Below are positions 6,476-23,680 of a stretch of DNA of 64,000 nucleotides, one piece after another. The stretch is from NCBI GenBank assembly GCA_045587745.1, contig JAZNCU010000018.1, forward strand, positions 3,434-67,433, in the 5' to 3' direction. The stretch comes from Eubacteriales bacterium. Its GTDB lineage: Bacteria > Bacillota > Clostridia > Oscillospirales > CAG-382. Made by a program: the position numbers and the translations under genes. The notes under the pieces are model-generated. The model saw only the letters and a list, made by a program, of their open reading frames with translations. It ran no database searches and was not told the origin of the DNA. Numbering within the stretch: the stretch's first letter is position 1; the number at the start of each line of letters is the position of its first letter.

Positions 6476-6526
6476 GCCCGAGATAGACAGCTTCATGGCG
6501 AAGTGTCTCCCTCGGGCAGATTTTTT
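6476..6526. terminator. bidirectional terminator between convergent genes
   Basis: GCCCGAGATAGACA ... TGTCTCCCTCGGGC stem (2 mismatches) followed by TTTTTT (6521-6526). Confidence 0.6.
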
Positions 6527-6528
6527 AC

Positions 6529-8182: not shown

Positions 8183-8211
8183 TTGATTTGCAAAAAAGTA
8201 TGTGCTATACT
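8183..8211 (+). promoter_or_regulatory. sigma-70-like promoter
   Basis: TTGATT (8183-8188), 17-nt spacer, TATACT (8206-8211), upstream of the LRR-dockerin gene. Confidence 0.45.
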
Positions 8212-8257
8212 AAATAGGTAATAAAATTTTGATACACATAAAAAAGGGAGAATAGTC

Positions 8258-9163: not shown

Positions 9164-9231
9164 TCGAAAGGCCGCAAAGCGAAAATCTCCTGCAAAAAGC
9201 GGTTTTCCAAAAACACATAAGCTTTCAAAAA

Positions 9232-9275
9232 ATACCCAAGTGTCCATAGTGGCACTTGGGTATTTTTGTTTTTGA
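9232..9275 (+). terminator. rho-independent terminator
   Basis: ATACCCAAGTG-(10 nt)-CACTTGGGTAT followed by TTTTGTTTTT. Confidence 0.8.
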
Positions 9276-9374
9276 GTTGTGAATCGCTATTTTTTTATTT
9301 TCATAACAAATCCATTACAAGTTTGCAGTAATATATGGTATGATAAGTATATCAGCAAAGGCGGTGAGAATAAA

Positions 9375-10022
9375 ATGGCAAAAATTCTTGTTGCGGAAGA
9401 TGAAAAGCCGATAAGGAATCTGATAATGCGCAATCTCGAGCTTACGGGACATACCTGTACGGGCGCCGGCGACGGGCTTGAGGCATCGCGCCTATTGGAA
9501 ACCGAGCAGTTTGATCTGCTTATTCTTGATATAATGATGCCAAGGCTTTCGGGATTTGAGGTGTTTGAGCTTGCAGAGGGCACACCCGTTATTTTCGTTA
9601 CGGCAAAAAACCGATTGGATGACCGCATAAAAGGGCTCAGCCTCGGAGCTGACGATTATATCGTAAAGCCGTTTGAGATACAGGAGCTTTTGTTAAGAGT
9701 CAAAGCTGTGCTCAGACGCACCTGCCGTGAGGAGCACAAGCTCGCATTTGGCGAGGTTGTTATCGACTTTTCGGCGAAAAAGGTTTTTTTAAGAGGAAGC
9801 GAGATCGTTCTTACGCCAAAAGAATATTCGCTTCTTGAAACATTGGTCTGCAATCGTAACGTAGCGTTGTCGCGCGATAAGCTGATCTCGCTGGTGTGGG
9901 GCTATGATTACGAGGGTGACAGCAGGACTGTGGACGTGCATATCCGTCAGATACGAGCCAAGCTGGAGCTAAAGGACAGACTCAAAACGCTTTATAAAAC
10001 GGGATACAGGTTCGAGCTATGA
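9375..10022 (+). CDS. OmpR-family response regulator
   Basis: MAKILVAEDE..., receiver Asp in LLILDIMMP, winged-helix tail VDVHIRQIRAKL...GYRFE. Start trimmed from 9279 to ATG 9375. Confidence 0.92.
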   Translation: MAKILVAEDEKPIRNLIMRNLELTGHTCTGAGDGLEASRLLETEQFDLLILDIMMPRLSGFEVFELAEGTPVIFVTAKNRLDDRIKGLSLGADDYIVKPFEIQELLLRVKAVLRRTCREEHKLAFGEVVIDFSAKKVFLRGSEIVLTPKEYSLLETLVCNRNVALSRDKLISLVWGYDYEGDSRTVDVHIRQIRAKLELKDRLKTLYKTGYRFEL

Positions 10023-11371: not shown

Positions 11372-11438
11372 CAACTTCCGAATAAATCCAGAACAGCGCT
11401 GTTTTAGAATCCTCTTACAGAAAGGAGGAGTGTACAAA

Positions 11439-12788
11439 ATGAAAACAAAAACACTCGCTATCACTACCGTAGCATTGATTACTGCTGCGGCGTTTATTCT
11501 CACGGCGGGTCTCTCGTTGCTCAACGGCTCGGCTGTCGGCGAGGCTCTTATTTCGAGCGAGTCGGCATTGCCCGATGCTTCCGAGGCTGTTGTTACCGAG
11601 CTGCCCGAGGTCGATCCCGATGCAGGCGTTCCCGCTGAGGATCAGCCCGAGAACGGCGTTATCGCCGATGATATGCCCATGCTCGACGCAGAGGGCATAG
11701 ACGAATCCGGCGATAATGCACAGGAGGATGGCAACGGCAGGGATGAGATCCCGGACAGAGATGCGTTTGACGGAGTTATTGCCATTGACATTTATGCTCA
11801 GAGCACCGCAGAGTATGTTGGCCAGGTAATCATCGACTCTGAGGAGGCGTATAGCCGTCTGGAGGAGCTCTTTTACGAGTATGCCGAGAACAGAACTTAC
11901 CTGTTTGACCCCAATTACGGCACGGTCTCGAGTGAACATTGGCTTCCCAAGGCAAAATACCGTATCGAGGTAATGGCAGGCTCGATTTTTGCTTATTCTT
12001 ACGGTGTTGAGAACAACACTGTTATGGAATCGCTTCAGTCGGGAGTTACCTTTGCCGGCGGTGACGAGGTTATCGCGTTCATCGACAGCCTTATAGCTGA
12101 TGAGATCGACGCTATCGAAAACGGCATCAACAAAAAGCCCAATCCGCAGAACGCTATAGTTGAAGTGGAAAAACTGCTTCAGTACTGGTGCGGCGGCTAC
12201 AATGAGGTGCTCGGTACCGATCTTCCCGCTCACGGACGCAAGACTCCCAGATTCCCCTACAAACAGGGAGCCAACGAAGAAGGCCTTTACGATATGGTGC
12301 TGGTAGACGTTTATGAGCATTCGACAGGAAAGCTGGTTGGCAGAATCGACCTCTCCACTACCAAGAACTTTAACGCAGTTCATGAGGCCGCCGACGTTTA
12401 CTTTAACGGTGCGATCAGCTCAAACGACCCTGATTACGCCGACAGGGAGCAGTGCGTGCTTCCCAACGCAGACTACAGAATCGAGATCTTCGCATTTACT
12501 GCAAATGAGTTCGGCGGATATCGCGATGGTCTTTTTCTTGCTTATTCCTACAACCTCGGCGAGGGTGCAGTGGGCGATAAATTTGAGCTTGTTCAGATCG
12601 GTATGAGCTTTAACGGCGGTGCACAGCTTACTGCGGCTCTCGATGCTCTTATCGAGGCAGGAATGCAGGATATCTCCGCAGGAAACGGTGTTATTCCCGA
12701 GATCGCCGCATCCGCATTGTCGAGATGTGAGGACTGCTGGAAGGTCAACGGACGTTATTCTGAGAGATTTCCTTATATCTCCGAATAA
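11439..12788 (+). CDS. hypothetical secreted/membrane-anchored protein with an internal tandem domain duplication
   Basis: ATG 11439 is 10 nt after AGGAGG (11423-11428). N-terminal hydrophobic segment. The two halves align (IAIDIYAQSTAEYVGQVII / MVLVDVYEHSTGKLVGRIDL; KAKYRIEV / NADYRIEI; FAGGDEVIAFIDSLI / FNGGAQLTAALDALI). Confidence 0.7.
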   Translation: MKTKTLAITTVALITAAAFILTAGLSLLNGSAVGEALISSESALPDASEAVVTELPEVDPDAGVPAEDQPENGVIADDMPMLDAEGIDESGDNAQEDGNGRDEIPDRDAFDGVIAIDIYAQSTAEYVGQVIIDSEEAYSRLEELFYEYAENRTYLFDPNYGTVSSEHWLPKAKYRIEVMAGSIFAYSYGVENNTVMESLQSGVTFAGGDEVIAFIDSLIADEIDAIENGINKKPNPQNAIVEVEKLLQYWCGGYNEVLGTDLPAHGRKTPRFPYKQGANEEGLYDMVLVDVYEHSTGKLVGRIDLSTTKNFNAVHEAADVYFNGAISSNDPDYADREQCVLPNADYRIEIFAFTANEFGGYRDGLFLAYSYNLGEGAVGDKFELVQIGMSFNGGAQLTAALDALIEAGMQDISAGNGVIPEIAASALSRCEDCWKVNGRYSERFPYISE

Positions 12789-12925
12789 TTGCAAAAACAG
12801 CATCGCACAAATGCGTGGTCCTAACAGAGAAATTCATAATTTTTCAGCTCCTGTTTATAAAAAGCAGCATCGCATTTGTGTGCACAAATTCAGTCGGGCA
12901 GTAGCCCAAAACCACCAATAATATA

Positions 12926-12965
12926 AAAGAGAAGATTCGTTTTTCACGAGTCTTCTCTTTTTTCT
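12926..12965 (+). terminator. rho-independent terminator
   Basis: AAAAGAGAAGA-(loop)-TCTTCTCTTTTTTC. Confidence 0.65.
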
Positions 12966-13084
12966 GTTATGTAATATGTCGGCTTTCGTAAGCGTAATAT
13001 TTTTGTGTTAAAAGCCTTTTTCGACTTGTTTTATGTAATGTAGGGAACATTTTGGTCCCGTTACCGGAAAACCATAATAAGTAA

Positions 13085-13672
13085 TTAACTATACACAAAG
13101 CTACACCTCACCGCAACATATTCCATAGAATAGGCATCACGGCAAAAGAGAGTCAAGTCATAATCCGCACTGATAAGCCAATTGCTATCGGCGTTTTTGG
13201 AACGGTCAACACGGCTAACGGTATAGAGAAACTGCGTTCCTGTCATATCTGTTACGATGATAACGGTTCCGTTGTCGATTTTGTCGCAAAAAGAAAATTG
13301 ATGAGAATAATCACCTCCGCCGATTACCAAGGTATGATCATAAGAACTGCCATGAAAACGAGCGGGAGAGGCAAAAAGTTGGTCGCTGTTCCATTCGTCC
13401 GCCACAGGAAGTGTAACGTTTAGGGAAGCGATTTCAAGCATTGCTACATAATCCACACCGTCAATTTCCAAGACCGGCATATTTGGATTGGAATATATTC
13501 CGGGCATTCCTGCATTTCTTTCCGACAACAGCTCATTCATTTTTACCGCAACTTCCTGACTTTTGAAAGAGCCGATATGTACACGGATTTGAAACACAAC
13601 GACCAATGCAAAACTAACGAAAATCAACGAGACTCCCAGAACAAGCAGGATCGGAAGTTTGCGCTTTTTCAT
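13085..13672 (-). CDS. sortase-family protein, divergent (Gly at the canonical catalytic His position)
   Basis: N-terminal TM helix. Sortase-like order of blocks: LEIASLNVTLPV, ARFHGS, then VIGGGDYSHQF where sortases have IAGHR/T, then DLTLFCRD (the TLxTC position, Cys kept) and EYVAVRCSFV (Arg kept). ATG 13672 overlaps the upstream stop (ATGA). Confidence 0.65.
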   Translation of the reverse strand: MKKRKLPILLVLGVSLIFVSFALVVVFQIRVHIGSFKSQEVAVKMNELLSERNAGMPGIYSNPNMPVLEIDGVDYVAMLEIASLNVTLPVADEWNSDQLFASPARFHGSSYDHTLVIGGGDYSHQFSFCDKIDNGTVIIVTDMTGTQFLYTVSRVDRSKNADSNWLISADYDLTLFCRDAYSMEYVAVRCSFVYS

Positions 13673-14598
13673 AGGCCACGCTTCCTCCTGCCGTACATGC
13701 CTGCTATGATCAGCATAATTCCGGAAATACACATTGTTAAAATCCAGGGCAGTAAGCTTGTGCTGTCTCCGGTAGGCGGGGTATCGGAAATATCCGAGTC
13801 AGAGTCATGAGTATTGATGATAGAAAACGAGCTGTTGTTCTGCTGAACCGTTACGGTATAATTATCCGAAACATCACGTTCTGCAACTGTCCACTCACTA
13901 TGGTCTTCCTCAGACACATACCATACATAAGACCAGTTGTTGCTCGCATTGAGAATTTGGCTTTCCTGTAGCGTTCCATCCTTGTAGATATCCACAGTAA
14001 TTTGATCCGGACGATCATCCTGGTTGCCTGCATCCTGCCAAAGCTTTGTCACTCTGTATTCGGTTTTGGGTACGTAATTCGCGCACTTGGGCTGGGCTTC
14101 GACAGTATAGTCAAAAGAACCGTCAAGCTGCGGGGTGGGAAGGTAAACCATAAACTGGTTAAATATATAGGTGCCGGTGTTATTTTCGGCCACTATCTCG
14201 CGAATGAGATATAATCCTGTTTCCAAATGCTCAAACGTTGCCGTTCCTGTCTCATCGGTTCTTTCCGTGCGATATGGGGCAAGTTGATTTGCAACAATAT
14301 AGGAGCTTAATGTCTCGGCGATATTATTCCACTGCTCTTGCATAGTGATATTATGAATATTGACCGGGTAGGAAGCAAACGGATCTATCAGCTCAAATGT
14401 GCCGTCCGGGAAGGCTTCGGCAACTCGGTAGATGCTGATTGGAAGATCCGAAAACACCTGTTCCTCTTTTTGATAGCACAAAGTCAAGCCGGCATCGGCC
14501 GCAGGATCCAACGGGGTTGCCGCATATGCATATAACGGGTATAACATTGCTGTGCAAAAAACAACCAAGCATATAAACCGTGCAATTTGTTTTCTCAT
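13669..14598 (-). CDS. minor/basal pilin candidate: Cna-B-type domain protein with TPPTG sorting signal
   Basis: Signal peptide ...LYAYAA. Cna-B-like block YRVTKLWQDAGNQDDRPDQITVDIYKDGT...NWSYVW. C-terminus TPPTGDSTS + TM + GRRKRGL. ATGA overlap with the sortase gene upstream. Confidence 0.75.
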   Translation of the reverse strand: MRKQIARFICLVVFCTAMLYPLYAYAATPLDPAADAGLTLCYQKEEQVFSDLPISIYRVAEAFPDGTFELIDPFASYPVNIHNITMQEQWNNIAETLSSYIVANQLAPYRTERTDETGTATFEHLETGLYLIREIVAENNTGTYIFNQFMVYLPTPQLDGSFDYTVEAQPKCANYVPKTEYRVTKLWQDAGNQDDRPDQITVDIYKDGTLQESQILNASNNWSYVWYVSEEDHSEWTVAERDVSDNYTVTVQQNNSSFSIINTHDSDSDISDTPPTGDSTSLLPWILTMCISGIMLIIAGMYGRRKRGL

Positions 14599-15428
14599 AT
14601 ATTTTCTTCCCCCAAGGATACTTTCTTTACGGGTGCAAACATAACATAAATAAGCAGTACAAAAATAATCGGAAGCGCAACAATCGGCATAACAATCAGC
14701 GGCTCGATACGATATGCTTCGTTGGCAATATATAGGTTTCGTATCTGCGTTGCATCTATCTGATGTCCGCGCACCAAAAGACGTTGTGTATTGATTCCGT
14801 AAGGCGTACAGGTCAGAAGCGTACAGTAATCCTTTCCATCCTTTATTTGAATCAGGCTTGAGTCATCGGGTTCAACAATACGTATTTGATCTACTTCGTA
14901 AGAAATTGTGCGGTCAAGGATAGTGAAATAAAAAACATCACCGATCTCCATTCTATCCAAATGCGTAAAAAGCACAGCAGTCGGAAGTCCTCGGTGTGCA
15001 GATACTACGCAGTGAGTGCTCTCGCCGCCCACCGGCAGACTGGTTCCTTGTAGGTGACCCACCGCGACGCTCAGAACACCATCCGATGTTCCGTGATAAA
15101 CGGGTAATTCCTGACTGATCTTCGGTACAGTGATGTATCCCATCATACCGGTGCCGCCAACATTGAGAATACTGTTATAATCCGGCAGTCGGTTGTGTTC
15201 AACGAGCGGCTCGCTCAGTTGTGAAAGCTCTTTGTTGTAGGCATCGGCTTCCGCAAAAATAGCGGCATAATCCTCCGGTTTGTACTGCAACAACATAGAC
15301 TCGTAGTCAACAATAGCCTCGCTTTGTGTCTTGGAATTCCAGTAGCTGCTAACAGAGGGGTATAACAGCACGGACAGACCTACGAAAAAAGAAACGAGTA
15401 GTATAATCGTCGATTTTTTACTTCTCAT
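14595..15428 (-). CDS. srtC: class C (pilus-assembly) sortase
   Basis: VVSAHRGLP (His), YCTLLTCTPYG (TLxTC Cys), QRLLVRGH (Arg), N-terminal TM and C-terminal hydrophobic anchor typical of class C. Start trimmed to ATG 15428 behind GGGAGAGG. Confidence 0.9.
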   Translation of the reverse strand: MRSKKSTIILLVSFFVGLSVLLYPSVSSYWNSKTQSEAIVDYESMLLQYKPEDYAAIFAEADAYNKELSQLSEPLVEHNRLPDYNSILNVGGTGMMGYITVPKISQELPVYHGTSDGVLSVAVGHLQGTSLPVGGESTHCVVSAHRGLPTAVLFTHLDRMEIGDVFYFTILDRTISYEVDQIRIVEPDDSSLIQIKDGKDYCTLLTCTPYGINTQRLLVRGHQIDATQIRNLYIANEAYRIEPLIVMPIVALPIIFVLLIYVMFAPVKKVSLGEENI

Positions 15429-15454
15429 AAGCCTCTCCCTAATGTTATGGATGC

Positions 15455-15481
15455 CCCGGCAGGAGCAAAGCCCCTGCCGGG
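15455..15481 (-). promoter_or_regulatory. intercistronic GC-rich stem-loop between major pilin and sortase genes
   Basis: CCCGGCAGG-(8 nt)-CCTGCCGGG perfect 9-bp stem with no T-run on the minus strand. May be a stability or attenuation element. Confidence 0.5.
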
Positions 15482-15510
15482 ATTGCATTATGTAATCAGA
15501 ACGTTTACGA

Positions 15511-16965
15511 TCAATCCTTGATCATAGCCATTCTCTTCTTGGTAACCAGCAGAACGCCGGCAGCCAGAACTACGATTGCACCGAAGGTAATGAACAGAAC
15601 GGTACCGATACCGCCGGTCTCGGGCAGCATAGAGCCGGTCTTGTTTACTACATGAACACCGGAACCGGTGGAGTAGATTTCACCATTGAAGGTTGCATCC
15701 AGATTGCCGTCGGAGATGATAAACTTCTGACGGGCACTAAGCTTATTGTAGCCGTCGGGAGCCTCGGTCTCTTCCAGATAGTAGGTGCCGTTGTCGAAAC
15801 CGACTACACGTACCTTGCCGTCCTTAACCACGATATCGATGCCGATCTCGTCAGCTCTTGCGCGGCGATAGGTAACGCCATCGTCCATCAGAACTACAGC
15901 AATCTCATTGCCATCGGTAGCAGCATCGTAAATCTTAAATTCTGCACCGTCCAGCAGAGTGTTCTGGGAGTCGGTCTTGACAATATCTATGCCGTAGGTG
16001 TAAGTGGTGACGGAGTCCTCGTTGGACTTGTGGTCTTCGCCAAAGGTCAGCCATGCGGTGTTGACGTTGCCACTGCCTGCGATAACTGCATTGCGGTTGA
16101 GCATAGCAGTATAATGAACGATGATCTTGTCATTGGTCTCCAGCTCATCGCAGAATTCCTTGGTGAAATGCACTTCGAAATCACAACCGTCGGAAGAAAC
16201 ATCCGCACCGGTCTTTACGGTGTACTTGTTCGCATCAACCGCGTGAGTATCGTTGCCGGGAACGACATGCTCAATACCGGTCACCTGCTGATAAGTCAGA
16301 CCGTCGGCCATGATATCGTGCAACACATAGTTTTCTGCACCGGCATGAACATTGACGGTTACACGGTATTCCACTGTCTGACCGATGTCAGCGCTGTTCT
16401 GGGCACCCCACTGAGCAGTGGAATCTTCCTTAACCTGCTTGTCAATAGTGGGAATGCCGTTCTTGGCATTGATGGAAGCGTCGGGGTTGGTGGTAGTCAG
16501 ACCGCAAAGGGCACCTACAGTGGAGTCCACCAAGTAGTAGCCCAGCTCCAGTTCGGAGAACTTTCCGGAGTCTGCGGTAATTACAAAGTCACCGGTATTT
16601 GCGGAGGATTTCACAGGGGCAATACTGTTGGTCTTAGCATAGGCCAGAGCCAGTTTTGCAAACGCTGCTTTGGTATCATCGTCTTCTGACGAAGTCCAAG
16701 TAACGTAGCCATCTGCATCGGTAGACATATACGCCTTGGCATCGTCGGTAGCAAAGAACGCTGCCCAAGCGGCATTTGCCTTGTAGGAGTATGCGCCTGC
16801 AGCTACATCGTAGCTTTCAAGATCCAACAGCTTGTAGATTGCGTAGGTGCTGTCTGAGTTGACACCGTTAATGGTAATGGAGCCGGTTTCTCCTGCCGCC
16901 AAAACCGTAACGGAAAGAGATGCGATCAGCATCAGTGCGAGGATCAAAGAGATGATCTTTTTCAT
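15511..16965 (-). CDS. major pilin (SpaA/FimA-like backbone subunit), LPETG
   Basis: Signal peptide, GSITINGV...YAIYKLL start typical of Gram-positive pilins, E-box-like GTYYLEETEAPDGY, C-terminal LPETGG + TM + KKR. Confidence 0.85.
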   Translation of the reverse strand: MKKIISLILALMLIASLSVTVLAAGETGSITINGVNSDSTYAIYKLLDLESYDVAAGAYSYKANAAWAAFFATDDAKAYMSTDADGYVTWTSSEDDDTKAAFAKLALAYAKTNSIAPVKSSANTGDFVITADSGKFSELELGYYLVDSTVGALCGLTTTNPDASINAKNGIPTIDKQVKEDSTAQWGAQNSADIGQTVEYRVTVNVHAGAENYVLHDIMADGLTYQQVTGIEHVVPGNDTHAVDANKYTVKTGADVSSDGCDFEVHFTKEFCDELETNDKIIVHYTAMLNRNAVIAGSGNVNTAWLTFGEDHKSNEDSVTTYTYGIDIVKTDSQNTLLDGAEFKIYDAATDGNEIAVVLMDDGVTYRRARADEIGIDIVVKDGKVRVVGFDNGTYYLEETEAPDGYNKLSARQKFIISDGNLDATFNGEIYSTGSGVHVVNKTGSMLPETGGIGTVLFITFGAIVVLAAGVLLVTKKRMAMIKD

Positions 16966-17054
16966 AATACTTTTTTCCTTTCAAAAAAATTATTTTTGTT
17001 TTGTTTATGGGAGGAATCAGATTCACGGCGCAACAATTGCCGCGATAAGAAGGC

Positions 17055-20000
17055 TTATTTCATCCTCCTTTCCCGCTTGCGCCTTGATCCGATTCCATAT
17101 GTCAGTGCGGTTAGCATAATGCCTGCACCGCACAGTACATACATCAGTCGGGCCGGTGAGCCGGTAGAAGGCAGCTCAGGACCGCCCGGATGGTAGGTGT
17201 TGGTGATTTCAACGGAGTAGGTAGGCGGAGAGCTGTCGGACACTCGGATTTCTCCGTAAGCCGTAGACCATTTCTCCTTTTCCCAAACCTCATCAACCGT
17301 ATACAGGATCACGTTTCCGTTTTCATCCTTGTAGGGAAGACCCTGGAAAACACCTTGCCAGTTGTTTTTGAGTGTCAATGTCATGCTGCGGCCGGTATTA
17401 ACACCGTTGGCAAACAATCGCACCGTCACGGCAAATTCGTGATACAGCGAAGCATCGTAGCCTGCGGGTATCACCCATTCCTTTGTCACGGCAAAGGAGG
17501 TTTCGTTATTGACAGCCAGCGGTGTATTGGTAATCTGATATGCCCAGTCTCCCACCTCCATCGAGGTGGAGATCGTAATTTTTTTCATGGGGATCAGTAT
17601 CAGAGAGCTGTTGGCATTGGTGCTGTAATTGAACTTCTGGGAACCGTTCATGCTGTTTGCCAGGTAGTAGTTATTTCTATCTTGCTGGTAGAAGATCTGC
17701 AAGCCGCCGGAACGATTGCTATAGGAAAACTCCTGCCTATCCTGGCTTTGCGGCGATTCGATCCTGGCGTAGAAGTCCGTTGGACTGCCTCCGTTGTAAT
17801 AGAAGGTGATCGTCTGTCCGACACCGTTGGTAAACTTCACCCTTCCGCCGTTCACCGTAGTGGTCCACAGAGCGTTCGGCGAGGATTTCGCCGTTTCCTC
17901 ATCCACCCACGTGTAGCCGGTATCCGCTCTGTTGTCCAGGGTAGACAGATAACCGCTGCCGGATCGCAGAATGTAGGTTTCGCCGTTTTGGAAGGAGAGT
18001 GCTTCTGCCCATTGGGTCGAGTCAATGACGATTTCCGTGATTCTTCGAACCGTAGAATAATAACCGGATTCATAAGATTCCTCGACACCGTACTTAACCT
18101 CTGTCAACGCATCATAATCATATTTGGGCAGATTGGTCCAGATGTACATCCAATTATTTTCGTCACTCAGTGTGACCTCACGGATGCGTCGGATCGTACC
18201 GTCCGCATCGGTCACCGTCAGGTAGGCCCGGATATAATCCTTGCTGTGATCGGCTGTATCCTCCCACTTTTTGATGAGCTGCACCGTTGTGGTTTCCGTC
18301 ACGGTTTCGGGTGCATTGGTCACAACGAGGTAGACAATCTGAGTCTCCTCATCGATCTTCACACCGTGGACAGTAAAGCCGTTGGAAGGCTCGTTTCCGT
18401 CGGCATCCGCAACCACATCCACATGGTAGGTGGCTTGTCCTTCCTTTTCAATGGTCAGGCGGATAACACCGTCCGCAAGACCGTAGCCTTCGGCTAAGGG
18501 AGGGCCTGTCTCTTTTATGTAGTAGGTATTGCCGGAGCCCAAGCCCCAAATATTGGCAATCCCGTTATTGACAGTGAAGGTGCTTTGGAATTGGTCCAGC
18601 ACACCGTCTGCGTAGTCTTGATTGTAAGCCTCTTCACTTGCCCAAAGGGTTGCACTCCGGGTGCAGGCAAAATCCTCATAGACGGTAAATTGCGTACCAT
18701 CCAGAAGCTGTTGCGTCAAAACATCTTCTTTTTGCAGCTGAAGACCAAATCGTGGAGCCAGGTTAAAATAGATGGAGCAGTTGGACAAAGAGGAACCGCG
18801 CTCCAAATAGAGGATACTCAGCGTATGATCACCGGCGGTGATTCCCAGATCCATCAGGCTGGTTTGCTGTCTGCCCTGTACGGTTACCTGTCCGGTGGAA
18901 AAATCGATTACACCGCTCTCGGCACCGTGTATGCCGCCGATATCCAGCACCAACCGGCCGTCGATCAAAACCCAAAGGTCATCGTCGCCACTAAATTGGA
19001 ACTGCATATCGTTTCCGTACAAATCCTTGTTGCCGTCGGTGCCGGGCTCGTTGGGGAGATAGAACTTGATGTCCGTCCGCATACCGTAGGCGTAATCCGT
19101 CTGCACGTTGTTGACGGAGTTATAGTTGCCGGAGTTGTATTTGGAATCGTAGCGGTAGTGAGGAACGCCTTCGTATTCCCCGTCCACACCGTCGTAACTG
19201 TACGTGCCCACCGTTTTGCCGTTTGTATTGGCATAAGGGGAGTTCAGGGGCAGGAAGTCCGAGTAGGTAGAGTCAATGGCGTCGGACGTACCCGCAAGAT
19301 ATTCGTATACATAAAACCGGTTGTTGCTCTGGTTGTAGGATGCGGCATTGCGCTTGGAATCATAATAGTAATAGCCGTAATGCTCGTCCGCAGGGTCATC
19401 CATAATCTGGAACAGATGGTCACCCGTTCCCAAATAGGTCTTGCCCAAAACGCCCTGTCCGGTTGCCGGGTCAAAGCAGTTGTCTGTCGCAAACAGCAGC
19501 TCCCCAATAGCATCGGAATAGATGCCCGGAGTCACAATTCCGGAGCCGGGATAAACGTTGTGAGAGCTTCGGTTATCGGGCATACAAAGCAGCCCGCCTG
19601 TGTCGTTGTCAATAAATATAAAATCCAGGGTCTCTCGGTTTCCGTGGGCAACATTACCCGAGGTTACCATATACCACGTCTCCGAGTGAGAGGATGCACT
19701 TATGGAGGACTGCGCCCTTGAAGAATGGATATTCAGCAGATAGTTGTAGTCAAACATATGGGTCGTAATAAAGGAATTGGTGCTGACCGTATCTGCTACC
19801 TGTGCATTGAAAATACCGATATCGTATGTACTTGCTACCCAGTCGGCATAAAGGACTGCATTGCCGGTTACTTCCATTTCGCCTCCCGGCAGGTAATAGC
19901 GGGCGTTGGTAATATCGTACCAGCCGCGTAGCTTGTAGCTGTACTTGCTGGGAGATGTCCATTCCGTGGGCAGTTTCAAAAGACTTCCGCCTTCGACAGT

Positions 20001-20900
20001 GTAGGCTCTGTTGGGAGAACCCGTCAGATACCCCAGTCCGCCGTCGGTACCGTCCAACCAAATCGTGTAATTCACGGCCGCAACGGAGGGCTCGTCCAAA
20101 ACGGTAATGCCTTCTGCCTCGGGAACAAGTCCGTATCCCATAACCACAGTGCCATCAAGCTGATATCGGGCTTCGGCAACCGCATTGCTCAGGTCGCCCT
20201 GGATAACCGTAATGGATGTATCATCAAAACCGGTAATAATCGCAACCGCATTGGCTCCCGAAGCGGCAGAGCCCTCTTTATGCAGAAAAACAATGTTGCC
20301 GATTTCGGGTAAACGCTCTTCAGCCGCTTTATAAAGCCCCTCTTCTTCCCATTCCAACCGCATGGATTCCGGGCCGGCGTTCATCGGCAAATCCGTGCCG
20401 CCTGCATATTCAAGGCAGAAAGAAACGAACATAGCCGACCAGTCACCATAGGGATTTCCGTACCATTGACCGTATCGGGTGATGCCGCGGCGGACACCGC
20501 CCGCATCCACCTGGAAATTCAAAGTGCTTTCTGTATAGCCAAGCTGAGATTGAGCCACCAAAACCGCATTGGCCTTGGTGGTGGGACCGCGAGCCATATC
20601 GGTCAAGGTCATTTCCCAGTCATCACTGGTTTCCAAATCAGCGTTAATATTACTGTAGCAACCGGCCTCATGGGTATGTTCTTCTTTGACACAGCTGATA
20701 CACTCTTCGCCGTGTATATGCTCTTCTTTGCCGCAGAACGCTTCTCCCGCAACTCCGATTCCGGTAAGCTTAAGGCTCCAAAAAACAATCAATATGACCA
20801 ACATAGAAAGGGCAGGAATGATCTGCCGGAGCCTAAAACGATCCTTATTGCTTATATTCAGTTGTTCTAAAATCTTTTCTCCGCTCGTTGGCAAGACCAC
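17055..20900 (-). CDS. pilus tip adhesin candidate, 1281 aa: Cys/His motif, CHAP-like module, Flg_new/InlB-B-like repeat, fibro-slime (PA14-like) domain, Cna-B/SpaA-like domains, LPSTG
   Basis: SYKLRGWYD...VLYADW (Flg_new-like). FQFSGDDDLWVLIDGRLVLDIGGIHG (fibro-slime hallmark). YYIKETGPPLAEGY and Cna-B-like blocks (KKWEDT...NWMYIWTNLPKYD; TKEWV...NNWQGVFQGLPYKD). C-terminal LPSTG + TM + RRKRERR. TTG 20894 is 7 nt after GGAGG and may be the true start rather than GTG 20900. Confidence 0.85.
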   Translation of the reverse strand: MVLPTSGEKILEQLNISNKDRFRLRQIIPALSMLVILIVFWSLKLTGIGVAGEAFCGKEEHIHGEECISCVKEEHTHEAGCYSNINADLETSDDWEMTLTDMARGPTTKANAVLVAQSQLGYTESTLNFQVDAGGVRRGITRYGQWYGNPYGDWSAMFVSFCLEYAGGTDLPMNAGPESMRLEWEEEGLYKAAEERLPEIGNIVFLHKEGSAASGANAVAIITGFDDTSITVIQGDLSNAVAEARYQLDGTVVMGYGLVPEAEGITVLDEPSVAAVNYTIWLDGTDGGLGYLTGSPNRAYTVEGGSLLKLPTEWTSPSKYSYKLRGWYDITNARYYLPGGEMEVTGNAVLYADWVASTYDIGIFNAQVADTVSTNSFITTHMFDYNYLLNIHSSRAQSSISASSHSETWYMVTSGNVAHGNRETLDFIFIDNDTGGLLCMPDNRSSHNVYPGSGIVTPGIYSDAIGELLFATDNCFDPATGQGVLGKTYLGTGDHLFQIMDDPADEHYGYYYYDSKRNAASYNQSNNRFYVYEYLAGTSDAIDSTYSDFLPLNSPYANTNGKTVGTYSYDGVDGEYEGVPHYRYDSKYNSGNYNSVNNVQTDYAYGMRTDIKFYLPNEPGTDGNKDLYGNDMQFQFSGDDDLWVLIDGRLVLDIGGIHGAESGVIDFSTGQVTVQGRQQTSLMDLGITAGDHTLSILYLERGSSLSNCSIYFNLAPRFGLQLQKEDVLTQQLLDGTQFTVYEDFACTRSATLWASEEAYNQDYADGVLDQFQSTFTVNNGIANIWGLGSGNTYYIKETGPPLAEGYGLADGVIRLTIEKEGQATYHVDVVADADGNEPSNGFTVHGVKIDEETQIVYLVVTNAPETVTETTTVQLIKKWEDTADHSKDYIRAYLTVTDADGTIRRIREVTLSDENNWMYIWTNLPKYDYDALTEVKYGVEESYESGYYSTVRRITEIVIDSTQWAEALSFQNGETYILRSGSGYLSTLDNRADTGYTWVDEETAKSSPNALWTTTVNGGRVKFTNGVGQTITFYYNGGSPTDFYARIESPQSQDRQEFSYSNRSGGLQIFYQQDRNNYYLANSMNGSQKFNYSTNANSSLILIPMKKITISTSMEVGDWAYQITNTPLAVNNETSFAVTKEWVIPAGYDASLYHEFAVTVRLFANGVNTGRSMTLTLKNNWQGVFQGLPYKDENGNVILYTVDEVWEKEKWSTAYGEIRVSDSSPPTYSVEITNTYHPGGPELPSTGSPARLMYVLCGAGIMLTALTYGIGSRRKRERRMK

Positions 20901-20932
20901 ACCTCCTTTCCGATTGCTTTATTTATTGGGTG

Positions 20933-21529
20933 TTAGTCTATGAACTCAAATTCTGATAAAGGCCAGGATTTGCAAATAATCTTTCCAACAATTTGATCCT
21001 CGGAAACACAACCGATCACACTGCTGCGGCTGTCAATTGAGGTTTCTCTTTTATCTCCCATCACAAAGTAACAGTTTTCCGGTACCTGGTAAGGAAATTC
21101 AACGTCGCATTCGCCCAAAGCCTTCTCGCTGATGTACGGCTCGTCTAACGGGTTGCCGTTCAGAAAAACTGTACCGTCGGATTCAATCCAGATATAATCT
21201 CCCGGGGTGGCAATGACCCGCTTGATCAGAATTTTATTCGAGTAATAAAATGCACACAGATCACCGGTTTCCAAATTCTTCTTTTTTACCAGCAGAACAA
21301 TGTCTCCGTCGTTCAGATTCGGCTCCATGCTGGTGCCGGCGATTTGCAGAACCGGTAAAACCAACGTAGCTACCAGTGCGGCTACTGCGGCAACAACGAT
21401 CAAAGCATTTACGGTGCTTCTCAGTAATTTGCGGAAACGCCGCTTATAACGTTCCCGTTTTAATTCTTTTTGCAGAGCATCGACCGGCGGAAGCCCTCTT
21501 GTGCTGTGCGTTTCAATGTGTTTTTTCAT
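20933..21529 (-). CDS. type I signal peptidase (S26 family) encoded inside the pilus operon
   Basis: N-terminal TM, GTSMEPNL (Ser box), ILIKRVIATPGD (Lys box), GDKRETSIDSR (box E). Confidence 0.88.
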   Translation of the reverse strand: MKKHIETHSTRGLPPVDALQKELKRERYKRRFRKLLRSTVNALIVVAAVAALVATLVLPVLQIAGTSMEPNLNDGDIVLLVKKKNLETGDLCAFYYSNKILIKRVIATPGDYIWIESDGTVFLNGNPLDEPYISEKALGECDVEFPYQVPENCYFVMGDKRETSIDSRSSVIGCVSEDQIVGKIICKSWPLSEFEFID

Positions 21530-21535
21530 ACGTTA

Positions 21536-21874
21536 TCATTCACCTTTAATGCGACTCGCTTCTTCCAACGCTTGGGCGATAATGCCGGCACTTTTTCTAT
21601 AAGCTTCTTCCTTGATTTCTTCCGCCTGTTTCTTTGCCGCATCAATATACATATCTGCAGCTTCTTGAGCCGCCTGAAAAACGCCTTTTAAGTGCAAAGA
21701 TGCTTCTGCAATTGAACCCAAGGCGGAAATGTTAATTTCCTGATCATTTAAACGCCGCTCTGCTTCCTCTAAAGCTACTTGTAATTTGTCAGCACGTTCT
21801 GTTTGAATAATAAGCAGTTCCAAAAGCTGATAGCGATTCAGTTTTTTTAACTCTTTCTCCGTCACAGAATACAC
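21536..21874 (-). CDS. small coiled-coil protein (DivIVA-like heptad character), first gene of the pilus operon
   Basis: The 112-aa ORF is charged and helical (LQVALEEAERRLNDQE...AAKKQAEEIKEEAYRK). It is 6 nt from the signal-peptidase gene. The GTG at 21865 is better spaced from AAAAGAGG than the ORF-track start. Confidence 0.6.
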   Translation of the reverse strand: MYSVTEKELKKLNRYQLLELLIIQTERADKLQVALEEAERRLNDQEINISALGSIAEASLHLKGVFQAAQEAADMYIDAAKKQAEEIKEEAYRKSAGIIAQALEEASRIKGE

Positions 21875-22012
21875 CTCTTTTCATTATCTAATAACAAAAA
21901 AAGTAAAGCTTCCAAAGAGGTATGGTAAACCATATCTCTGACATGGCTTTTGAGATCTAAATAAGGGTGCAGGGCAAAAATAGGTACATTTATTCTGTAT
22001 GTCTGTCAAGAC

Positions 22013-22042
22013 ATTGTACCACGCTGCCATTTCAAATTGCAA
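22013..22042 (-). promoter_or_regulatory. candidate promoter of the pilus operon
   Basis: Minus strand reads TTGCAA (22042-22037), 18-nt spacer, TACAAT (22018-22013). This leaves a ~130-nt leader before the first ORF. Confidence 0.45.
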
Positions 22043-22107
22043 CCCCTTCCCTTGCATATTTGCATATAATTATAGATATTATATTATATCACAAAAGTTT
22101 ATGTCTT

Positions 22108-22509
22108 TCAATGGCTTTCTTCACTTTTCTCAAAAAGTTTGGAATTGTTTTCGTGCTCATCAGAAAGGTTTATTACAGCATTGCCTTGCTTCATTGCATA
22201 ATCTACCGTCTGCCAAGCACCGCCTTTTTCGTGCTCAATGTAGCAGATGATCGGGTCGGCACGATCAACCATTTCCCGGTTGCGAATTTGGATAGCGGAT
22301 TTAGGATGTGCAATTGATGCGGCACAAGAAATCTCGATGCCGGTATAATAGTCATAAAAGTAATTTTCGTTATTAAGATACTCCTCCGTGGGATACGGCA
22401 GCACCAATACAAGGGCTCTGTTATCGTCCCTATGATTTTTTCGTACGCGAAGTACTGAGGATGAGACGCATTGATCAAAGTCCCCGTTGCGTCCAACCAA
22501 AAAATCCAC
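22108..22509 (-). pseudogene. SLOG/DUF1273 (YpsA-like) gene, apparently N-terminally truncated
   Basis: DFLVGRNGDFDQC...LVLVLPYP...IRNREMVDRADPIICYIEHEKGGAWQTVDYAMKQGNAVINL follows the YpsA-like pattern. The expected N-terminal ~35 aa (GHRP region) are missing, with TAA TAG in frame just upstream and no RBS. Confidence 0.4.
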
Positions 22510-22706
22510 GTACTCATTTTCGTCAGCAGTTTGTCTTTTCCGGAACTATTATCGACAATACCAAAGTACATCATTTCAATAGCCGTTATCACAAACGGTA
22601 GCATCGGCAGTAGTTCTGCGGCAAGAAAGAGAACTGACCATACTCATAACCATGACCAAAAATTGGATAACAAGAACGATTGCACGCATGGGTGTTGACC
22701 GTATTT

Positions 22707-22880
22707 TCAGGACAAAAAACATGGCAGCAGTGTTGAGAGTAAATAGAACGTCAACAGCATAGGTGAAAGTGCAAGAAAGTCTTTCAAGTAAAAACCGAGT
22801 AACAGGTTGTATATAAGTGCGATAGCAAAGAAAATGATTCTTGATCTTGTGTTGGTTTTAGATGCTTTTTTAGTCTTCAT
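22707..22880 (-). CDS. small hydrophobic protein (57 aa), below the ORF-track size cutoff
   Basis: ATG 22880 is 8 nt after AAGGAG. Translation by hand: MKTKKASKTNTRSRIIFFAIALIYNLLLGFYLKDFLALSPMLLTFYLLSTLLPCFLS. Basic N-terminus plus two hydrophobic stretches. Confidence 0.4.
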   Translation of the reverse strand: MKTKKASKTNTRSRIIFFAIALIYNLLLGFYLKDFLALSPMLLTFYLLSTLLPCFLS

Positions 22881-23043
22881 TTCAAATCTCCTTTATGTAC
22901 GAAAATTCTTTGAAACGAAGAAGCGGCAGTACAGAGTGTATTGCTCTGTACTGCCACAAACAAAGACTATTTAACATCTTTTAAGAAAACAACAAACCCG
23001 AACGTTTCACCGATTGGTAAAAGGTTCGGGTTTGAATGCTTTA

Positions 23044-23061
23044 GTGCGGCTGATGGGACTT
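23044..23061 (-). repeat. exact 18-bp duplicate of the 3' end of tRNA-Leu (att-like scar)
   Basis: GTGCGGCTGATGGGACTT at 23044-23061 is identical to 23271-23288 (T-arm 3' half plus acceptor 3' strand of the tRNA), in the same orientation, with 209 bp between the two copies. Confidence 0.85.
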
Positions 23062-23225
23062 TTTTCTCGCTTTCGCCGCTTGCCGCATTGCTCCGCAATG
23101 CTCTCGCCTGCTTCGCTCAAAAACCTGTGTCGGTAACATACCCCAATAATGCGTTCCGCATTTTCGGGGGCCCTATTAAAACGTGTCACCGACACGTTTT
23201 TACCCGACCTTCAAGTCCCCTCGAA

Positions 23226-23268
23226 TCAAAAACAAAACAGCACCCGCTTTGCGAGTGCTTTTTGTTTT
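23226..23268 (-). terminator. terminator immediately downstream of tRNA-Leu
   Basis: Minus strand reads AAAAACAAAA-AGCACTCGC-AAA-GCGGGTGCT-GTTTTGTTTTT. Confidence 0.7.
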
Positions 23269-23351
23269 TGGTGCGGCTGATGGGACTTGAACCCATACGG
23301 TTGCCCACACGCCCCTCAAACGTGCGCGTCTGCCAGTTCCGCCACAGCCGC
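23269..23351 (-). tRNA. tRNA-Leu (anticodon GAG)
   Basis: Minus strand reads GCGGCTG...CAGCCGC-A-CCA (perfect acceptor). Anticodon stem CACGT/GCGTG with loop TTGAGGG, long variable arm, T arm ATGGG-TTCAAGT-CCCAT. Confidence 0.9.
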
Positions 23352-23404
23352 ATATCCAATTAACGTGCATCCAAAACAAGAGGGCTTCAAAATGCACAAG
23401 TGAT

Positions 23405-23432
23405 ATTATACACAGATATTCGGTTTTGTCAA
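23405..23432 (-). promoter_or_regulatory. sigma-70-like promoter for tRNA-Leu
   Basis: Minus strand reads TTGACA (23432-23427), 16-nt spacer, TATAAT (23410-23405). Confidence 0.55.
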
Positions 23433-23467
23433 CCCTTTTTTGCAAATTAAAGAGTAATTTTTTGATA

Positions 23468-23680
23468 CTAAATCTCAACGAACTCTGTCTCGCCGTCAAG
23501 AGGCAACGCACGGGGAACGGGGGCAATTTTAAGCAAATCAAGTGTAAACCTACGGCAAACGCCCTCGGATCTCACTGCGCCCTCGTGAACACAGATGCAC
23601 ATATCCGACTCATTTATTATTACCGCATGCTCACAGTAAGCGCAGATTTTGTCAACCGAATCGGGAAGGTTCTTTTTCAT
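23468..23680 (-). CDS. small Cys-rich (putative zinc-ribbon) protein, 70 aa
   Basis: ATG 23680 is 7 nt after AGAGGAGG. Cys pattern CAYC...CIC...C. Lies downstream of the ylbJ-like gene on the same strand. Confidence 0.6.
   Translation of the reverse strand: MKKNLPDSVDKICAYCEHAVIINESDMCICVHEGAVRSEGVCRRFTLDLLKIAPVPRALPLDGETEFVEI

Follow-up and report, generated by a model that had tools for sequence, protein, structure and literature searches.

Sequence evidence marks the seven genes at 13085-21874 of the window (the whole stretch of 64,000 nucleotides that was analysed) as a genuine sortase-dependent surface pilus operon from uncultured gut Clostridia. The host is a Faecousia-like, spore-forming gut Oscillospiraceae bacterium. 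We lean towards an explanation of the whole locus in which it produces a heterotrimeric, sortase-assembled pilus and the last gene product, g7, would act without catalysis by binding or presenting the sorting signal of the small pilin g6.

A conserved seven-gene operon

The features of the locus are as follows.

22083-22111, minus strand: candidate sigma-70-like promoter 5' of g1 (TTGAAA-17-TATAAT, extended TG; 11/12 consensus match)
22013-22042, minus strand: earlier promoter candidate (TTGCAA-18-TACAAT, TG; 9/12 consensus match)
21536-21874, minus strand: g1, cytoplasmic coiled-coil protein, 109-112 aa, without a signal peptide (ORF; weak DivIVA/AhaH-like matches)
20933-21529, minus strand: g2, S26 type I signal peptidase, membrane-anchored at its N-terminus (Peptidase_S26, TIGR02227; Ser67/Lys103 intact)
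17055-20900, minus strand: g3, LPSTG tip adhesin, 1281 aa (Cna_B, SpaA and fibro-slime matches)
15511-16965, minus strand: g4, LPETG backbone pilin, 484 aa, with a signal peptide (GramPos_pilinBB, SpaA, LPXTG anchor, NF033902, TIGR04226)
14595-15428 (longest ORF 14595-15488), minus strand: g5, class C sortase, 277 aa, with a C-terminal membrane helix (NF033745; SAHRG, TLLTC, QRLLVRG)
13669-14598, minus strand: g6, two-domain pilin, 309 aa, candidate basal pilin (pilin D1-like domain and Cna-B; TPPTGD)
13085-13672 (longest ORF 13085-13732), minus strand: g7, membrane-anchored sortase-fold protein, 195 aa, candidate pseudo-sortase (Foldseek and profile alignments)
12925-12961, both strands: bidirectional intrinsic-terminator hairpin shared by g7 and a convergent plus-strand gene (16-bp stem, with TTTTATATTATT after it on the minus strand)

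The ORF check found all seven genes co-directional, and the tight coupling described in the earlier note was borne out. Read from the sequence, ATGA overlaps join g5 to g6 (14598-14595) and g6 to g7 (13672-13669), and 6 nt separate g1 from g2 (21530-21535, TGA-taacgt-ATG). For g1, g5 and g7 the longest ORF exceeds the probable coding region and later starts were preferred, probably GTG 21865 for g1, with an AGAGG ribosome-binding site ahead of it, ATG 15428 for g5 and ATG 13672 for g7. The 3' end of the operon is marked by the hairpin and T tract at 12961-12925. At the 5' end, the promoter proposed earlier at 22042-22013 does resemble the consensus but is outscored by the candidate at 22111-22083.

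Among related loci from Faecousia/Oscillospiraceae gut MAGs, 22 were long enough to cover the whole block, and every one of them had g1 to g7 in the same order. In shorter related loci the visible genes were in register in 13 of 14, the exception being L036. Conservation on this scale goes beyond a chance arrangement of the seven-gene block. In each of the 22 complete loci, and in the distant locus L043 as well, g1 directly precedes the signal peptidase gene.

Pilus components

Domain models and synteny agree with the earlier reading of the locus as a pilus operon, in which a class C sortase is encoded together with three pilins (tip, backbone and small). Models for g2, g4 and g5 scored above curated cut-offs, and the three claimed sorting motifs, LPSTG, LPETG and TPPTG, were each read in the translations.

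The tip adhesin g3 opens with a conserved signal peptide, after which come two CxxxEHxHxxxC motifs and a degenerate CHAP-like domain (about residues 95-260). These are followed by a Listeria-Bacteroides repeat, a fibro-slime domain (628-710), a SpaA domain and two Cna-B domains, and the protein ends in LPSTG, a membrane helix and a basic tail. The LPSTG motif is conserved across related loci, and the signal-peptide/cleavage region (FW.LKLTGI..AG[ED]AFCG) is unusually so. The backbone pilin g4 scored 120 bits against NF033902 (cut-off 95). Its Lys168, in the pilin-motif-like context iNaKNg, is 100% conserved, its E-box, YYLEETEAPDGY, is also conserved, and LPETG was present in 28/28 loci where the C-terminus was visible. 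Both the LPETG backbone pilin and its E-box thus stand as first described, as does the assignment of g5 to class C, the polymerising class of sortases: g5 reached 259.8 bits against the class_C_sortase model NF033745 (cut-off 160) and its three motifs were kept across 32 sequences.

The signal peptidase g2 scored 116.5 bits against Peptidase_S26 and 125 bits against TIGR02227 (cut-off 47). Its closest solved relative is S. aureus SpsB, with which the catalytic Ser and Lys align. The motifs SM.P, KR[VI]I and GDxRxxSxDSR were kept in 22/22 loci, with Ser67 and Lys103 among the conserved residues. Judged by these residues g2 is a catalytically intact signal peptidase, confirming the earlier claim that its Ser/Lys boxes, unlike those of SipA, are complete.

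The Cna-B protein with a TPPTG motif, g6, was likewise found as described, with a Cna_B match and a non-LPXTG motif. It carries an invariant Lys171 (PKC) and ends in the sorting signal TPPTGD, a membrane helix and RRKRGL; the family motif xPxTG[DE] was present in 33/35 loci. An AF2 model (pLDDT 86.8) matched Gram-positive pilins, including the basal or ancillary subunits RrgC, EbpB, GBS52 and SpaE. On this modelling g6 is a pilin and a candidate basal subunit.

A sortase fold without a sortase active site

The last gene, g7, had been described as a second, atypical sortase. The fold was upheld; the active site was not. By profile search g7 reached neither the Pfam Sortase cut-off (21.9 bits against 26.6) nor any NCBIfam sortase class cut-off. 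Its AF2 model (pLDDT 82) returned sortases for all of the best 50 Foldseek matches (prob 1.0). Profile-to-PDB alignments with solved sortases placed the catalytic His of SrtD (4d70) and Ebp SrtC (24rr) at position 120, the catalytic Cys at position 177 and the catalytic Arg at E184 or Y185. Among 142 family representatives, position 120 was Ser, Thr, Ala or Gly and never His (0/142), and no alignment column exceeded 22% His. The catalytic Arg position was Arg in 0/142, with Tyr at position 185 in 124/142. The nucleophile position was Cys in only 10/142, including the window copy, and was thus missing in about 93%. With His and Arg never found at their catalytic positions and Cys so seldom at its own, g7 looks like a pseudo-enzyme rather than an extra transpeptidase, and is probably not a second working sortase.

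Cys177 occupies the canonical TLxTC site in the window g7 and in 26 close loci. In the divergent syntenic operons L027-L035 the same position is Ala, Val, Thr or Ile, and Arg189 is missing in 5/9 of them. The window g7 and its close relatives keep Cys177 together with Cys129, and because the two co-occur in 9/10 Cys177-bearing representatives, the pair fits a structural role better than a free nucleophile. Acyl-enzyme activity independent of His and Arg is possible in this subfamily. Two further cysteines, Cys190 (128/142) and Cys104 (87/142), are widely kept and either could be functional.

Searches at E<=1e-10 placed g7 in a family of 2016 clusters at 50% identity. By its sequence the family, large and so far undescribed, has retained the fold of sortases but not their catalytic residues. 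Its size and the ATGA translational coupling of g7 to g6 nevertheless suggest that g7 is still functional.

Pairing of g6 and g7 and a proposed assembly mechanism

Genes like g6 and g7 were adjacent in every context seen but one. Both are present in L043/L044, where class C sortase and backbone pilin are absent, and L041 and L047 contain the pair only. The pairing is not absolute, since in L045 a canonical-looking sortase follows the g7 homologue and no pilin precedes it. Of all gene pairs, g6-g7 showed the strongest correlation between distance matrices (r=0.92, partial 0.72), a figure confounded by shared phylogeny, with the partial value computed against a crude background; the correlation for g5-g7 was r=0.85. 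Relative to g2 and g5, both g6 and g7 diverge about 2.4 times as fast. The g6+g7 pair is the evolutionarily constant unit, and this lineage combines it with the backbone pilin and class C sortase.

We infer that g7 is a pseudo-sortase binding or presenting the xPxTG[DE] pilin g6. Pilin precursors would be processed at predicted cleavage sites by the operon's own signal peptidase, whose main substrate is probably g3, given the unusual conservation of its cleavage region. The class C sortase would then cut LPSTG and LPETG and link subunits via backbone Lys168, until g6 takes the fibre on Lys171 as the basal subunit and so stops polymerisation. The substrate groove of sortases, which alignment suggests g7 retains, would bind, hold or present the non-LPXTG signal of g6, g7 itself carrying out no transpeptidation. 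Having done so, g7 may pass its partner on to a sortase, either class C or housekeeping, or leave it tethered to the membrane. By analogy, the role of g7 would resemble that of inactive SipA, which is needed in streptococcal pilus assembly.

We consider it unlikely that g7 is a true second sortase, cleaving TPPTG and anchoring g6 and the finished pilus to the wall through Cys177 with non-canonical helpers. The fold, the TLxTC placement of Cys177, a partner motif that lacks the Leu usually read by class A and C sortases, and a co-divergence with g6 like that of enzyme and substrate would all suit such an enzyme. Yet every member lacks the catalytic His and Arg, two residues that, to our knowledge, the sortases studied to date all need. 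Most members also lack the Cys, some of them within seven-gene operons that are maintained all the same, and the Cys129 pairing again speaks for structure over catalysis.

More doubtful still is a regulatory role, in which g7, instead of serving g6 in particular, sets pilus length or timing by forming a heterodimer with g5 or competing for pilin sorting signals. Membrane anchoring like that of g5, a shared operon, pseudo-enzyme residues and the correlated divergence of the two proteins are consistent with it, but g7 homologues accompany g6-like pilins in loci from which a class C sortase is absent (L043/L044, L041, L047), and g7 outpaces g5 in its evolution while following g6 more closely. We regard it as very improbable that no polymeric pilus is made, with the sortase merely anchoring three separate adhesins and g7 a decaying relic. 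An adhesin module without backbone pilin or class C sortase does exist in L043; against this, g4 has an above-threshold SpaH/EbpB major-pilin signature, an invariant pilin-motif-like Lys and an E-box, g5 is of the polymerising class, and g7 has been conserved over the long term in >2000 clusters, with a full-length frame and translational coupling.

Comparison with known pilus systems

The operon follows the same logic as the S. pyogenes FCT and S. pneumoniae/S. oralis PI-2 loci, which also combine tip, backbone and small basal-type pilins with a signal-peptidase homologue and a sortase of their own, and need an enzyme-fold accessory protein beside the sortase. By sequence g2 matches SipA (4n31, E 2.6e-12) and LepA (4k8w, E 1e-11). 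In SipA, however, Asp and Gly replace the catalytic Ser and Lys (PMC4049620), whereas in g2 both are intact and conserved, and g2 is closer to housekeeping SpsB. The degenerate enzyme-fold protein here is a sortase paralogue instead of a peptidase paralogue, and the cytoplasmic coiled-coil gene g1 is extra. A class B sortase serves in some FCT types (PMC8088525), in contrast to the class C enzyme of this operon.

In C. perfringens, the VR-10B (CnaA/FimA/FimB) necrotic-enteritis locus encodes three pilins, a signal peptidase and a sortase in about 9 kb as one transcript, alongside a two-component system and with a non-class-A sorting signal on the basal pilin (PMC8088525). Our operon shares its clostridial setting, its size of about 9 kb, its gene content within a single transcription unit, the adjoining two-component system and the atypical basal signal. 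VR-10B differs in having a class B sortase and no sortase-like pseudo-enzyme. The neighbouring two-component system here is convergent and does not accompany the cluster in other species, and the tip architecture, with its degenerate CHAP and fibro-slime domains, is also different.

Among the canonical class C pili (C. diphtheriae SpaA-type, Enterococcus Ebp, L. rhamnosus SpaCBA/SpaFED), the major pilins belong to the same SpaH/EbpB family as g4 and the sortases to the same class as g5, and the g6 model is similar to EbpB and SpaE (basal), RrgC (ancillary) and GBS52 (minor). Those systems encode neither a signal peptidase nor an inactive sortase paralogue, and they leave attachment of the basal pilin to a catalytically active housekeeping sortase of class A or E. 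With the sortase superfamily (PF04203, classes A-F) g7 shares the eight-stranded barrel and N-terminal membrane anchor, and solved sortases of classes A, C and D match it in fold and weakly in profile, but it departs from them in its catalytic triad.

Flanks and accessory status

A tRNA-Leu lies at 23269-23351, and 17 nt of its 3' end are repeated exactly at 23044-23060, where 0.12 matches would be expected by chance. The earlier note had taken this att-like scar as a sign that the pilus block is accessory. The tRNA and repeat are real, but the repeat marks a different element. A strain 98.9% identical (L037) is collinear with window positions 3070-23047 and breaks exactly at the repeat, with a large serine recombinase gene at the break on the tRNA side. 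The scar therefore marks another element, and the pilus block lies outside it. The composition profile showed only a mild lowering at the two block ends (0.40-0.44 against about 0.50). It is the unrelated flanks of the cluster in other species, not the scar, that make it plausible from sequence that the cluster is accessory or mobile between species.

Organisation and conservation of the operon

An earlier note had described seven consecutive genes on the minus strand, and an ORF listing returned them with exactly the same coordinates, from g1 (21536-21874) through to g7 (13085-13732 as the longest ORF). The tight coupling it reported could also be read directly. ATGA overlaps join g5 to g6 at 14598-14595 (atATGAgaa) and g6 to g7 at 13672-13669 (cctATGAaaa), and a 6-nt gap at 21530-21535 separates g1 from g2 (TGA-taacgt-ATG, read at 21538-21527). 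The other intergenic gaps are 32 nt (g2-g3), 89 nt (g3-g4) and, if g5 starts at ATG 15428, approximately 82 nt (g4-g5). For g7, g5 and g1 the true start is probably later than that of the longest ORF. At the promoter position proposed previously (22042-22013) a consensus match was indeed found, but it scores only 9/12 and a stronger site lies elsewhere.

Signals and revised starts of the transcription unit
22111-22083, minus strand: better candidate promoter, TTGAAA-17-TATAAT with extended TG, matching the consensus
21865, minus strand: probable GTG start of g1, with an AGAGG site ahead of the GTG
15428, minus strand: probable ATG start of g5
13672, minus strand: probable ATG start of g7 (MKKRK..., 195 aa, matching the length of nearly all homologues)
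12961-12925, minus strand: terminator at the end of the transcription unit, a hairpin of 16 bp and then a T tract

An Rfam scan of 12500-23500 returned the tRNA and two matches far below gathering scores, and nothing else. A riboswitch or leader RNA upstream of g1 was considered and rejected, as no Rfam family was found there and, at z = -2.2, the fold of the leader is no more than mildly stable.

The g5 protein scored 259.8 bits on the class C sortase model NF033745 (cut-off 160). Its motifs SAHRG, TLLTC and QRLLVRG, which supply the His, Cys and Arg of the catalytic triad, are kept across 32 sequences. The g4 protein matched the SpaH/EbpB major pilin model NF033902 (120 bits, cut-off 95) as well as TIGR04226, and curated models placed GramPos_pilinBB, SpaA and LPXTG anchor domains within it. 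LPETG was found in g4 at every locus with a visible C-terminus. An E-box (YYLEETEAPDGY) is present and Lys168, within iNaKNg, is invariant; we infer that K168 is the linking lysine. By gene content the window thus holds a class C sortase-dependent pilus cluster, predicted to build covalent pilin polymers of high molecular weight on the cell surface. The source organism is known from metagenomes only, and that the cluster forms no polymeric pilus is very improbable given the pilin and sortase matches. The window also encodes YqfD, which marks its host as a spore-former.

When a single genome was scanned for each species, 36 loci with relatives of the cluster came to light, in Faecousia, Acutalibacteraceae, Oscillibacter and unclassified Oscillospiraceae or Eubacteriales MAGs from human and ruminant guts. 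In tblastn searches with the seven window proteins, all 22 sufficiently long loci had the same seven-gene order and 13 of the 14 shorter loci had their visible genes in register. The exception, L036, shows g1, g2, the start of the tip gene and then a g7 fragment, with g4-g6 undetected by tblastn. The same operon occurs in L037, a human-associated ENA assembly (ERZ28593913, scaffold_346, 34 kb) with 98.9% DNA identity to the window. The operon itself is ordinary in principle.

Divergence of the shaft subunit g4 follows a different course. Its distance matrix correlates with those of the other operon genes at only 0.34-0.56, against 0.63-0.92 for the others among themselves, and over L001-L035 it is between 50 and 92% identical to the window copy, independently of the identity of neighbouring genes. 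This uncoupled divergence suggests that the shaft subunit is exchanged by recombination or is under diversifying selection.

An operon signal peptidase with an intact dyad

The g2 protein matched Peptidase_S26 (116.5 bits) and the signal peptidase I model TIGR02227 (125.2 bits, cut-off 47). Its closest solved relative is S. aureus SpsB, and it also matches SipA (4n31) and LepA (4k8w). The catalytic dyad of SpsB aligns to Ser67 (GTSMEP) and Lys103 (IKRVIA), and both residues, together with box E (GDxRxxSxDSR), are kept in 22/22 related loci, in agreement with the intact motifs noted earlier. With family model, dyad and box E all present, g2 is predicted to be a type I signal peptidase (S26A). 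In streptococci, pilus operons of the FCT and PI-2 types likewise include a signal-peptidase-fold protein, SipA, but that protein is inactive; in S. pyogenes SipA, Asp and Gly replace the catalytic Ser and Lys (PMC4049620). As Ser67 and Lys103 are intact, g2 does not appear to be a SipA-type non-catalytic protein.

The cytoplasmic coiled-coil protein g1 gave only weak matches of that type (DivIVA, AhaH) and has no signal peptide; curated domain models assigned it to no family. Its N-terminus is conserved as (E/K)KELKKLNR.QLLELL..QTERADKL. The gene always lies directly ahead of the signal peptidase gene, even in the sortase-less locus L043, where the g1-like gene is at 3374-3850.

A tip adhesin with a degenerate CHAP domain

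Models matched in the 1281-aa tip protein g3 were two Cna_B, SpaA and the fibro-slime model TIGR02148 (49 bits, cut-off 45), with a weak match to the Listeria-Bacteroides repeat; the Cna-B and SpaA domains form the stalk. LP[ST]TG is retained across loci. Residues ~95-260 (window 20100-20620) are CHAP-related: Pfam gave no match to the N-terminal domain alone, and the link comes through the homologues P0291 and P0303, which carry PF05257, one homologue being annotated as a CHAP-domain protein. P0303 reads WCAMF, DHVGIV and IEGN, retaining C/H/N, where the window reads WSAMF, NAVAII and IQGD, so that the catalytic Cys and His are replaced. Ser also stands in place of the CHAP Cys in 22 of the 23 other aligned tip sequences, and Asn does so in L034. 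On these alignments the domain is probably a second degenerate enzyme domain in the operon, kept as a binding module that is lectin-like or peptidoglycan-binding rather than an amidase.

Upstream of this domain, directly after the signal peptide, are two CxxxEHxHxxxC motifs (CGxxEHxHxxxC; residues ~55-85, window 20640-20740), which may bind metal. Their copy number varies, from two in the window to at least four in some loci. Among L018-L021, L027, L028, L034 and L043, some loci carry long acidic or Pro-rich insertions beside CGxxEHxHxxxC. The g3 signal peptide and cleavage region (FW.LKLTGI..AG[ED]AFCG) is kept even in distant loci, from which we infer that g3 is the dedicated substrate of the adjacent signal peptidase g2.

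The g7 protein has a sortase fold but lacks the catalytic His and Arg

The g7 protein had been described as a second, atypical sortase. An AlphaFold (AF2) model built on 29 homologues (pLDDT 82.3) shows a barrel of eight strands behind a membrane helix at the N-terminus. In a Foldseek search of the PDB with this model each of the top 50 matches was a sortase, from class A, C or D (prob 1.0, query-normalised TM-score ~0.5). A single-sequence search of the PDB returned only chance matches (xylose isomerase, E 0.05), so a profile was needed. On sequence models g7 scored 21.9 bits on Pfam Sortase (PF04203), under the cut-off of 26.6, and at best 16 bits on an NCBIfam sortase class model with a cut-off of 165.

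Catalytic positions were mapped by aligning a 23-member family profile to solved sortases. An hhalign comparison of the g7 family with g5 (prob 0.5%) skipped the His strand and was discarded for this purpose. Position 120 of g7, in the motif VIGG-x-D, is where the alignments place the catalytic His of both C. perfringens SrtD (4d70) and E. faecalis Ebp SrtC (24rr). This position is Gly in the window and G/A/T/V/E across the window and its close relatives, next to an invariant Gly119. The catalytic Cys of the solved sortases maps to position 177, and the catalytic Arg to E184 in the alignment with 4d70 or to Y185 in that with 5dv0, a SrtA chain. The class C/D 'VRG' motif has a second Arg, which is not catalytic, and it is this one that Arg189 of g7 matches. 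The window and 26 close loci have Cys177 (LTLFC). In the divergent but fully syntenic loci L027-L035 this cysteine is replaced by A, V, T or I, and in 5 of these 9 (L030, L032-L035) Arg189 is F/S/C or the adjacent Cys190 is Gly.

The same losses were found across a large family. No exact match to the window protein exists in protein records, where its 99% relative P0001 does appear, and 346 relatives, nearly all ~195 aa, were found in a 90%-clustered database; the few that are named are called 'sortase' and come from Oscillospiraceae or Clostridia MAGs. Run exhaustively against 1.84 billion representatives, a g7 HMM recovered 2016 clusters (threshold E<=1e-10), almost all of which are 185-205 aa long. 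Residues were counted over 142 sequences (141 representatives and window g7). Position 120 is S/T/A/G/V/N and His in none of the 142, and no other column of the alignment exceeds 22% His. Position 177 is Cys in 10/142 and otherwise mainly A (48), V (37), I (17), T (11) or S (10). Position 185 is Tyr in 124/142 and never Arg; Arg occurs at position 184 in 5/142.

Conservation lies elsewhere, at M65-P66, P89, P103, R105, G108-S109, Y111, G118-G119, Q125, T141-D142, G145, F176, Y185 and C190. Cysteines also follow a pattern. Cys129 accompanies Cys177 in 9 of the 10 members with Cys177, the window subfamily among them, whilst most other members have Cys104 and Cys190 instead; Cys190 occurs in 128/142, and Cys104 (PCRF) in 87/142, with Ala in the window subfamily. 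Such a pattern could reflect compensatory relocation of a cysteine pair. Of five sortase properties checked, g7 has the fold; it lacks the catalytic His and Arg and scores below the family cut-offs, and its nucleophile position is Cys in the window but seldom in the family. The description as a second sortase therefore holds for the fold and not for the active site. We read the family as one kept by selection after the apparent loss of its His-Cys-Arg machinery.

g7 is partnered with a pilin carrying a non-LPXTG signal

Curated models found a Cna_B domain in the 309-aa small pilin g6, with weak pilin D1 and SpaA matches. Its AlphaFold model (pLDDT 86.8) resembles Cna-B repeats and Gram-positive pilins, including the basal or ancillary pilins RrgC (4oq1), EbpB (9lr7), GBS52 (3phs) and SpaE (6jbv). 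Two of its lysines never vary: Lys185, and Lys171 at the domain junction (PKC). The sorting signal is not LPXTG but xPxTG[DE], which fits 33 of 35 loci and never has Leu in first position; instances include TPPTGD (window), SPQTGD, TPQTGD, VPKTGD, APQTGD and PPETGD.

Over 23 complete clusters, g6 and g7 were the most divergent genes of the operon (mean pairwise distances 0.43 and 0.44, against 0.18 for g2/g5). Their distance matrices were also the best-correlated pair (r=0.92), and the correlation remained 0.72 with g2/g5 divergence regressed out. The two genes are thus associated and diverge together.

Wider contexts of g7 rest on five distant members from metagenomes. In L043 (2626-10615) and L044, genes for a coiled-coil protein and an S26 peptidase are joined by those for a tip-like adhesin of 1545 aa, a pilin resembling g6 (SPVTGD) and a g7-like protein, with backbone pilin and class C sortase absent. 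L041 (3880-5411) and L047 have only a g6-like (PPITGD, GPKTGD) and g7-like pair, with overlapping stop and start codons. L045 (687-2162) differs, with a g7-like gene followed by a canonical-looking sortase (VVYGHH, LLLSTC, ARYVLAG). As these contexts, L045 excepted, retain the pair, the persistent unit is the xPxTG[DE] pilin with its pseudo-sortase, to which the window lineage adds a backbone pilin and class C sortase.

A proposed role in pilus assembly

In the proposed mechanism, g2 would mature the pilin precursors, above all g3, and g5 would polymerise g3 and g4 through K168. The basal subunit would be g6, taking the fibre on K171, and g7 would bind or present the xPxTG[DE] signal of g6 without catalysis. 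This role can be likened to one suggested for SipA, the binding of a pilus component (PMC4049620); g7 would be the sortase-fold counterpart of this pseudo-peptidase.

A bolder reading, slightly less likely than not, is that the g7 family consists of widespread, hitherto undescribed non-catalytic sortase paralogues of gut Clostridia, forming a two-gene module with an xPxTG[DE] pilin, with or without a class C sortase, and acting as a dedicated sorting-signal receptor or chaperone. It is unlikely that g7 is an active non-canonical sortase in the Cys177-bearing subfamily: the window protein has the fold and this cysteine, but the His and Arg are absent and divergent syntenic loci have exchanged the cysteine too. 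Less likely again is that g7 modulates the class C sortase, a partner that accompanies it in the window lineage and is missing from L043 and L044.

Among the adhesive fibres of Gram-positive bacteria sortase pili are the chief kind and, to our knowledge, their assembly is understood almost entirely from pathogens. Here, a conserved pilus variant occurs in gut commensals that are abundant but uncultured, Faecousia and other Oscillospiraceae. Its three closest known systems are the streptococcal FCT and PI-2 pili with their inactive SipA, the C. perfringens VR-10B locus, and canonical SpaA/Ebp-type class C pili. The variant differs in having an operon signal peptidase with intact catalytic residues, a tip adhesin whose dead CHAP domain and fibro-slime domain are likely binding modules, and a triad-less sortase-fold protein fixed beside a pilin with a non-LPXTG signal. 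If the receptor or chaperone reading of g7 is true, pilus assembly in Gram-positive bacteria has drawn on dead enzymes derived from each of its two processing steps. A pseudo-sortase serving as sorting-signal receptor would be a new kind of assembly factor, and a natural sortase groove that binds a signal without cleavage would help both the study and the engineering of sortase specificity. Thousands of database 'sortase' entries are probably not transpeptidases. A full-text literature search, with most subscription journals outside its coverage, returned no relevant report of non-catalytic sortases and nothing relevant on Faecousia or Oscillospiraceae sortases. The conserved module of pseudo-sortase and pilin seems not to have been described before and is experimentally tractable.

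Flanks of the operon and the tRNA-Leu repeat

The earlier note had taken an att-like scar at the tRNA-Leu as a sign that the pilus block is probably accessory. The features concerned are as follows.

Features flanking the pilus operon
9279-12788, plus strand: OmpR-type response regulator, HAMP histidine kinase and 452-aa secreted protein (family unassigned)
22108-22500, minus strand: 130-aa ORF
22700-22880, minus strand: 57-aa hydrophobic ORF
22957-22923: strong terminator-like hairpin
23044-23060 and 23271-23287: 17-nt direct repeat of the tRNA-Leu(GAG) 3' end

The repeat is real (0.12 expected by chance), but it marks something else. L037 is collinear with the window over 3070-23047 and breaks exactly at the repeat. 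On the tRNA side of the break, L037 1-707 holds the end of a gene whose 484-aa product is a large serine recombinase with Resolvase, Recombinase and Zn_ribbon_recom domains. In this strain the tRNA-proximal site seems to be taken up by a mobile element. Since collinearity ends at the repeat with a recombinase beyond it, the polymorphic element lies between tRNA and repeat, and the pilus operon is outside it. In the window only ~210 bp separate the two repeat copies. No third copy with <=3 mismatches was found at the far end of the block, which therefore has no bracketing att sites.

A check of base composition had also been proposed. GC is lower at both block ends and in the 22-23 kb spacer (0.40), but the rest of the block is near the window average (0.43-0.51 within the block, ~0.50 for the window). 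None of the other 36 species has the window's downstream genes beside the cluster, which is thus a module that is portable or rearranged between species, with no sign that the tRNA scar defines it.

The 9279-12788 genes converge on the 3' end of the operon, as they do in L037 and in none of the other species. [quoted passage not shown]

Upstream, the 130-aa ORF travels with the cluster in L001, L007 and L009 (and the strain L037) and nowhere else; it had no Pfam match and no exact protein record. It sits in the AT-rich spacer, with the 57-aa ORF further upstream and the terminator-like hairpin between both ORFs and the tRNA.
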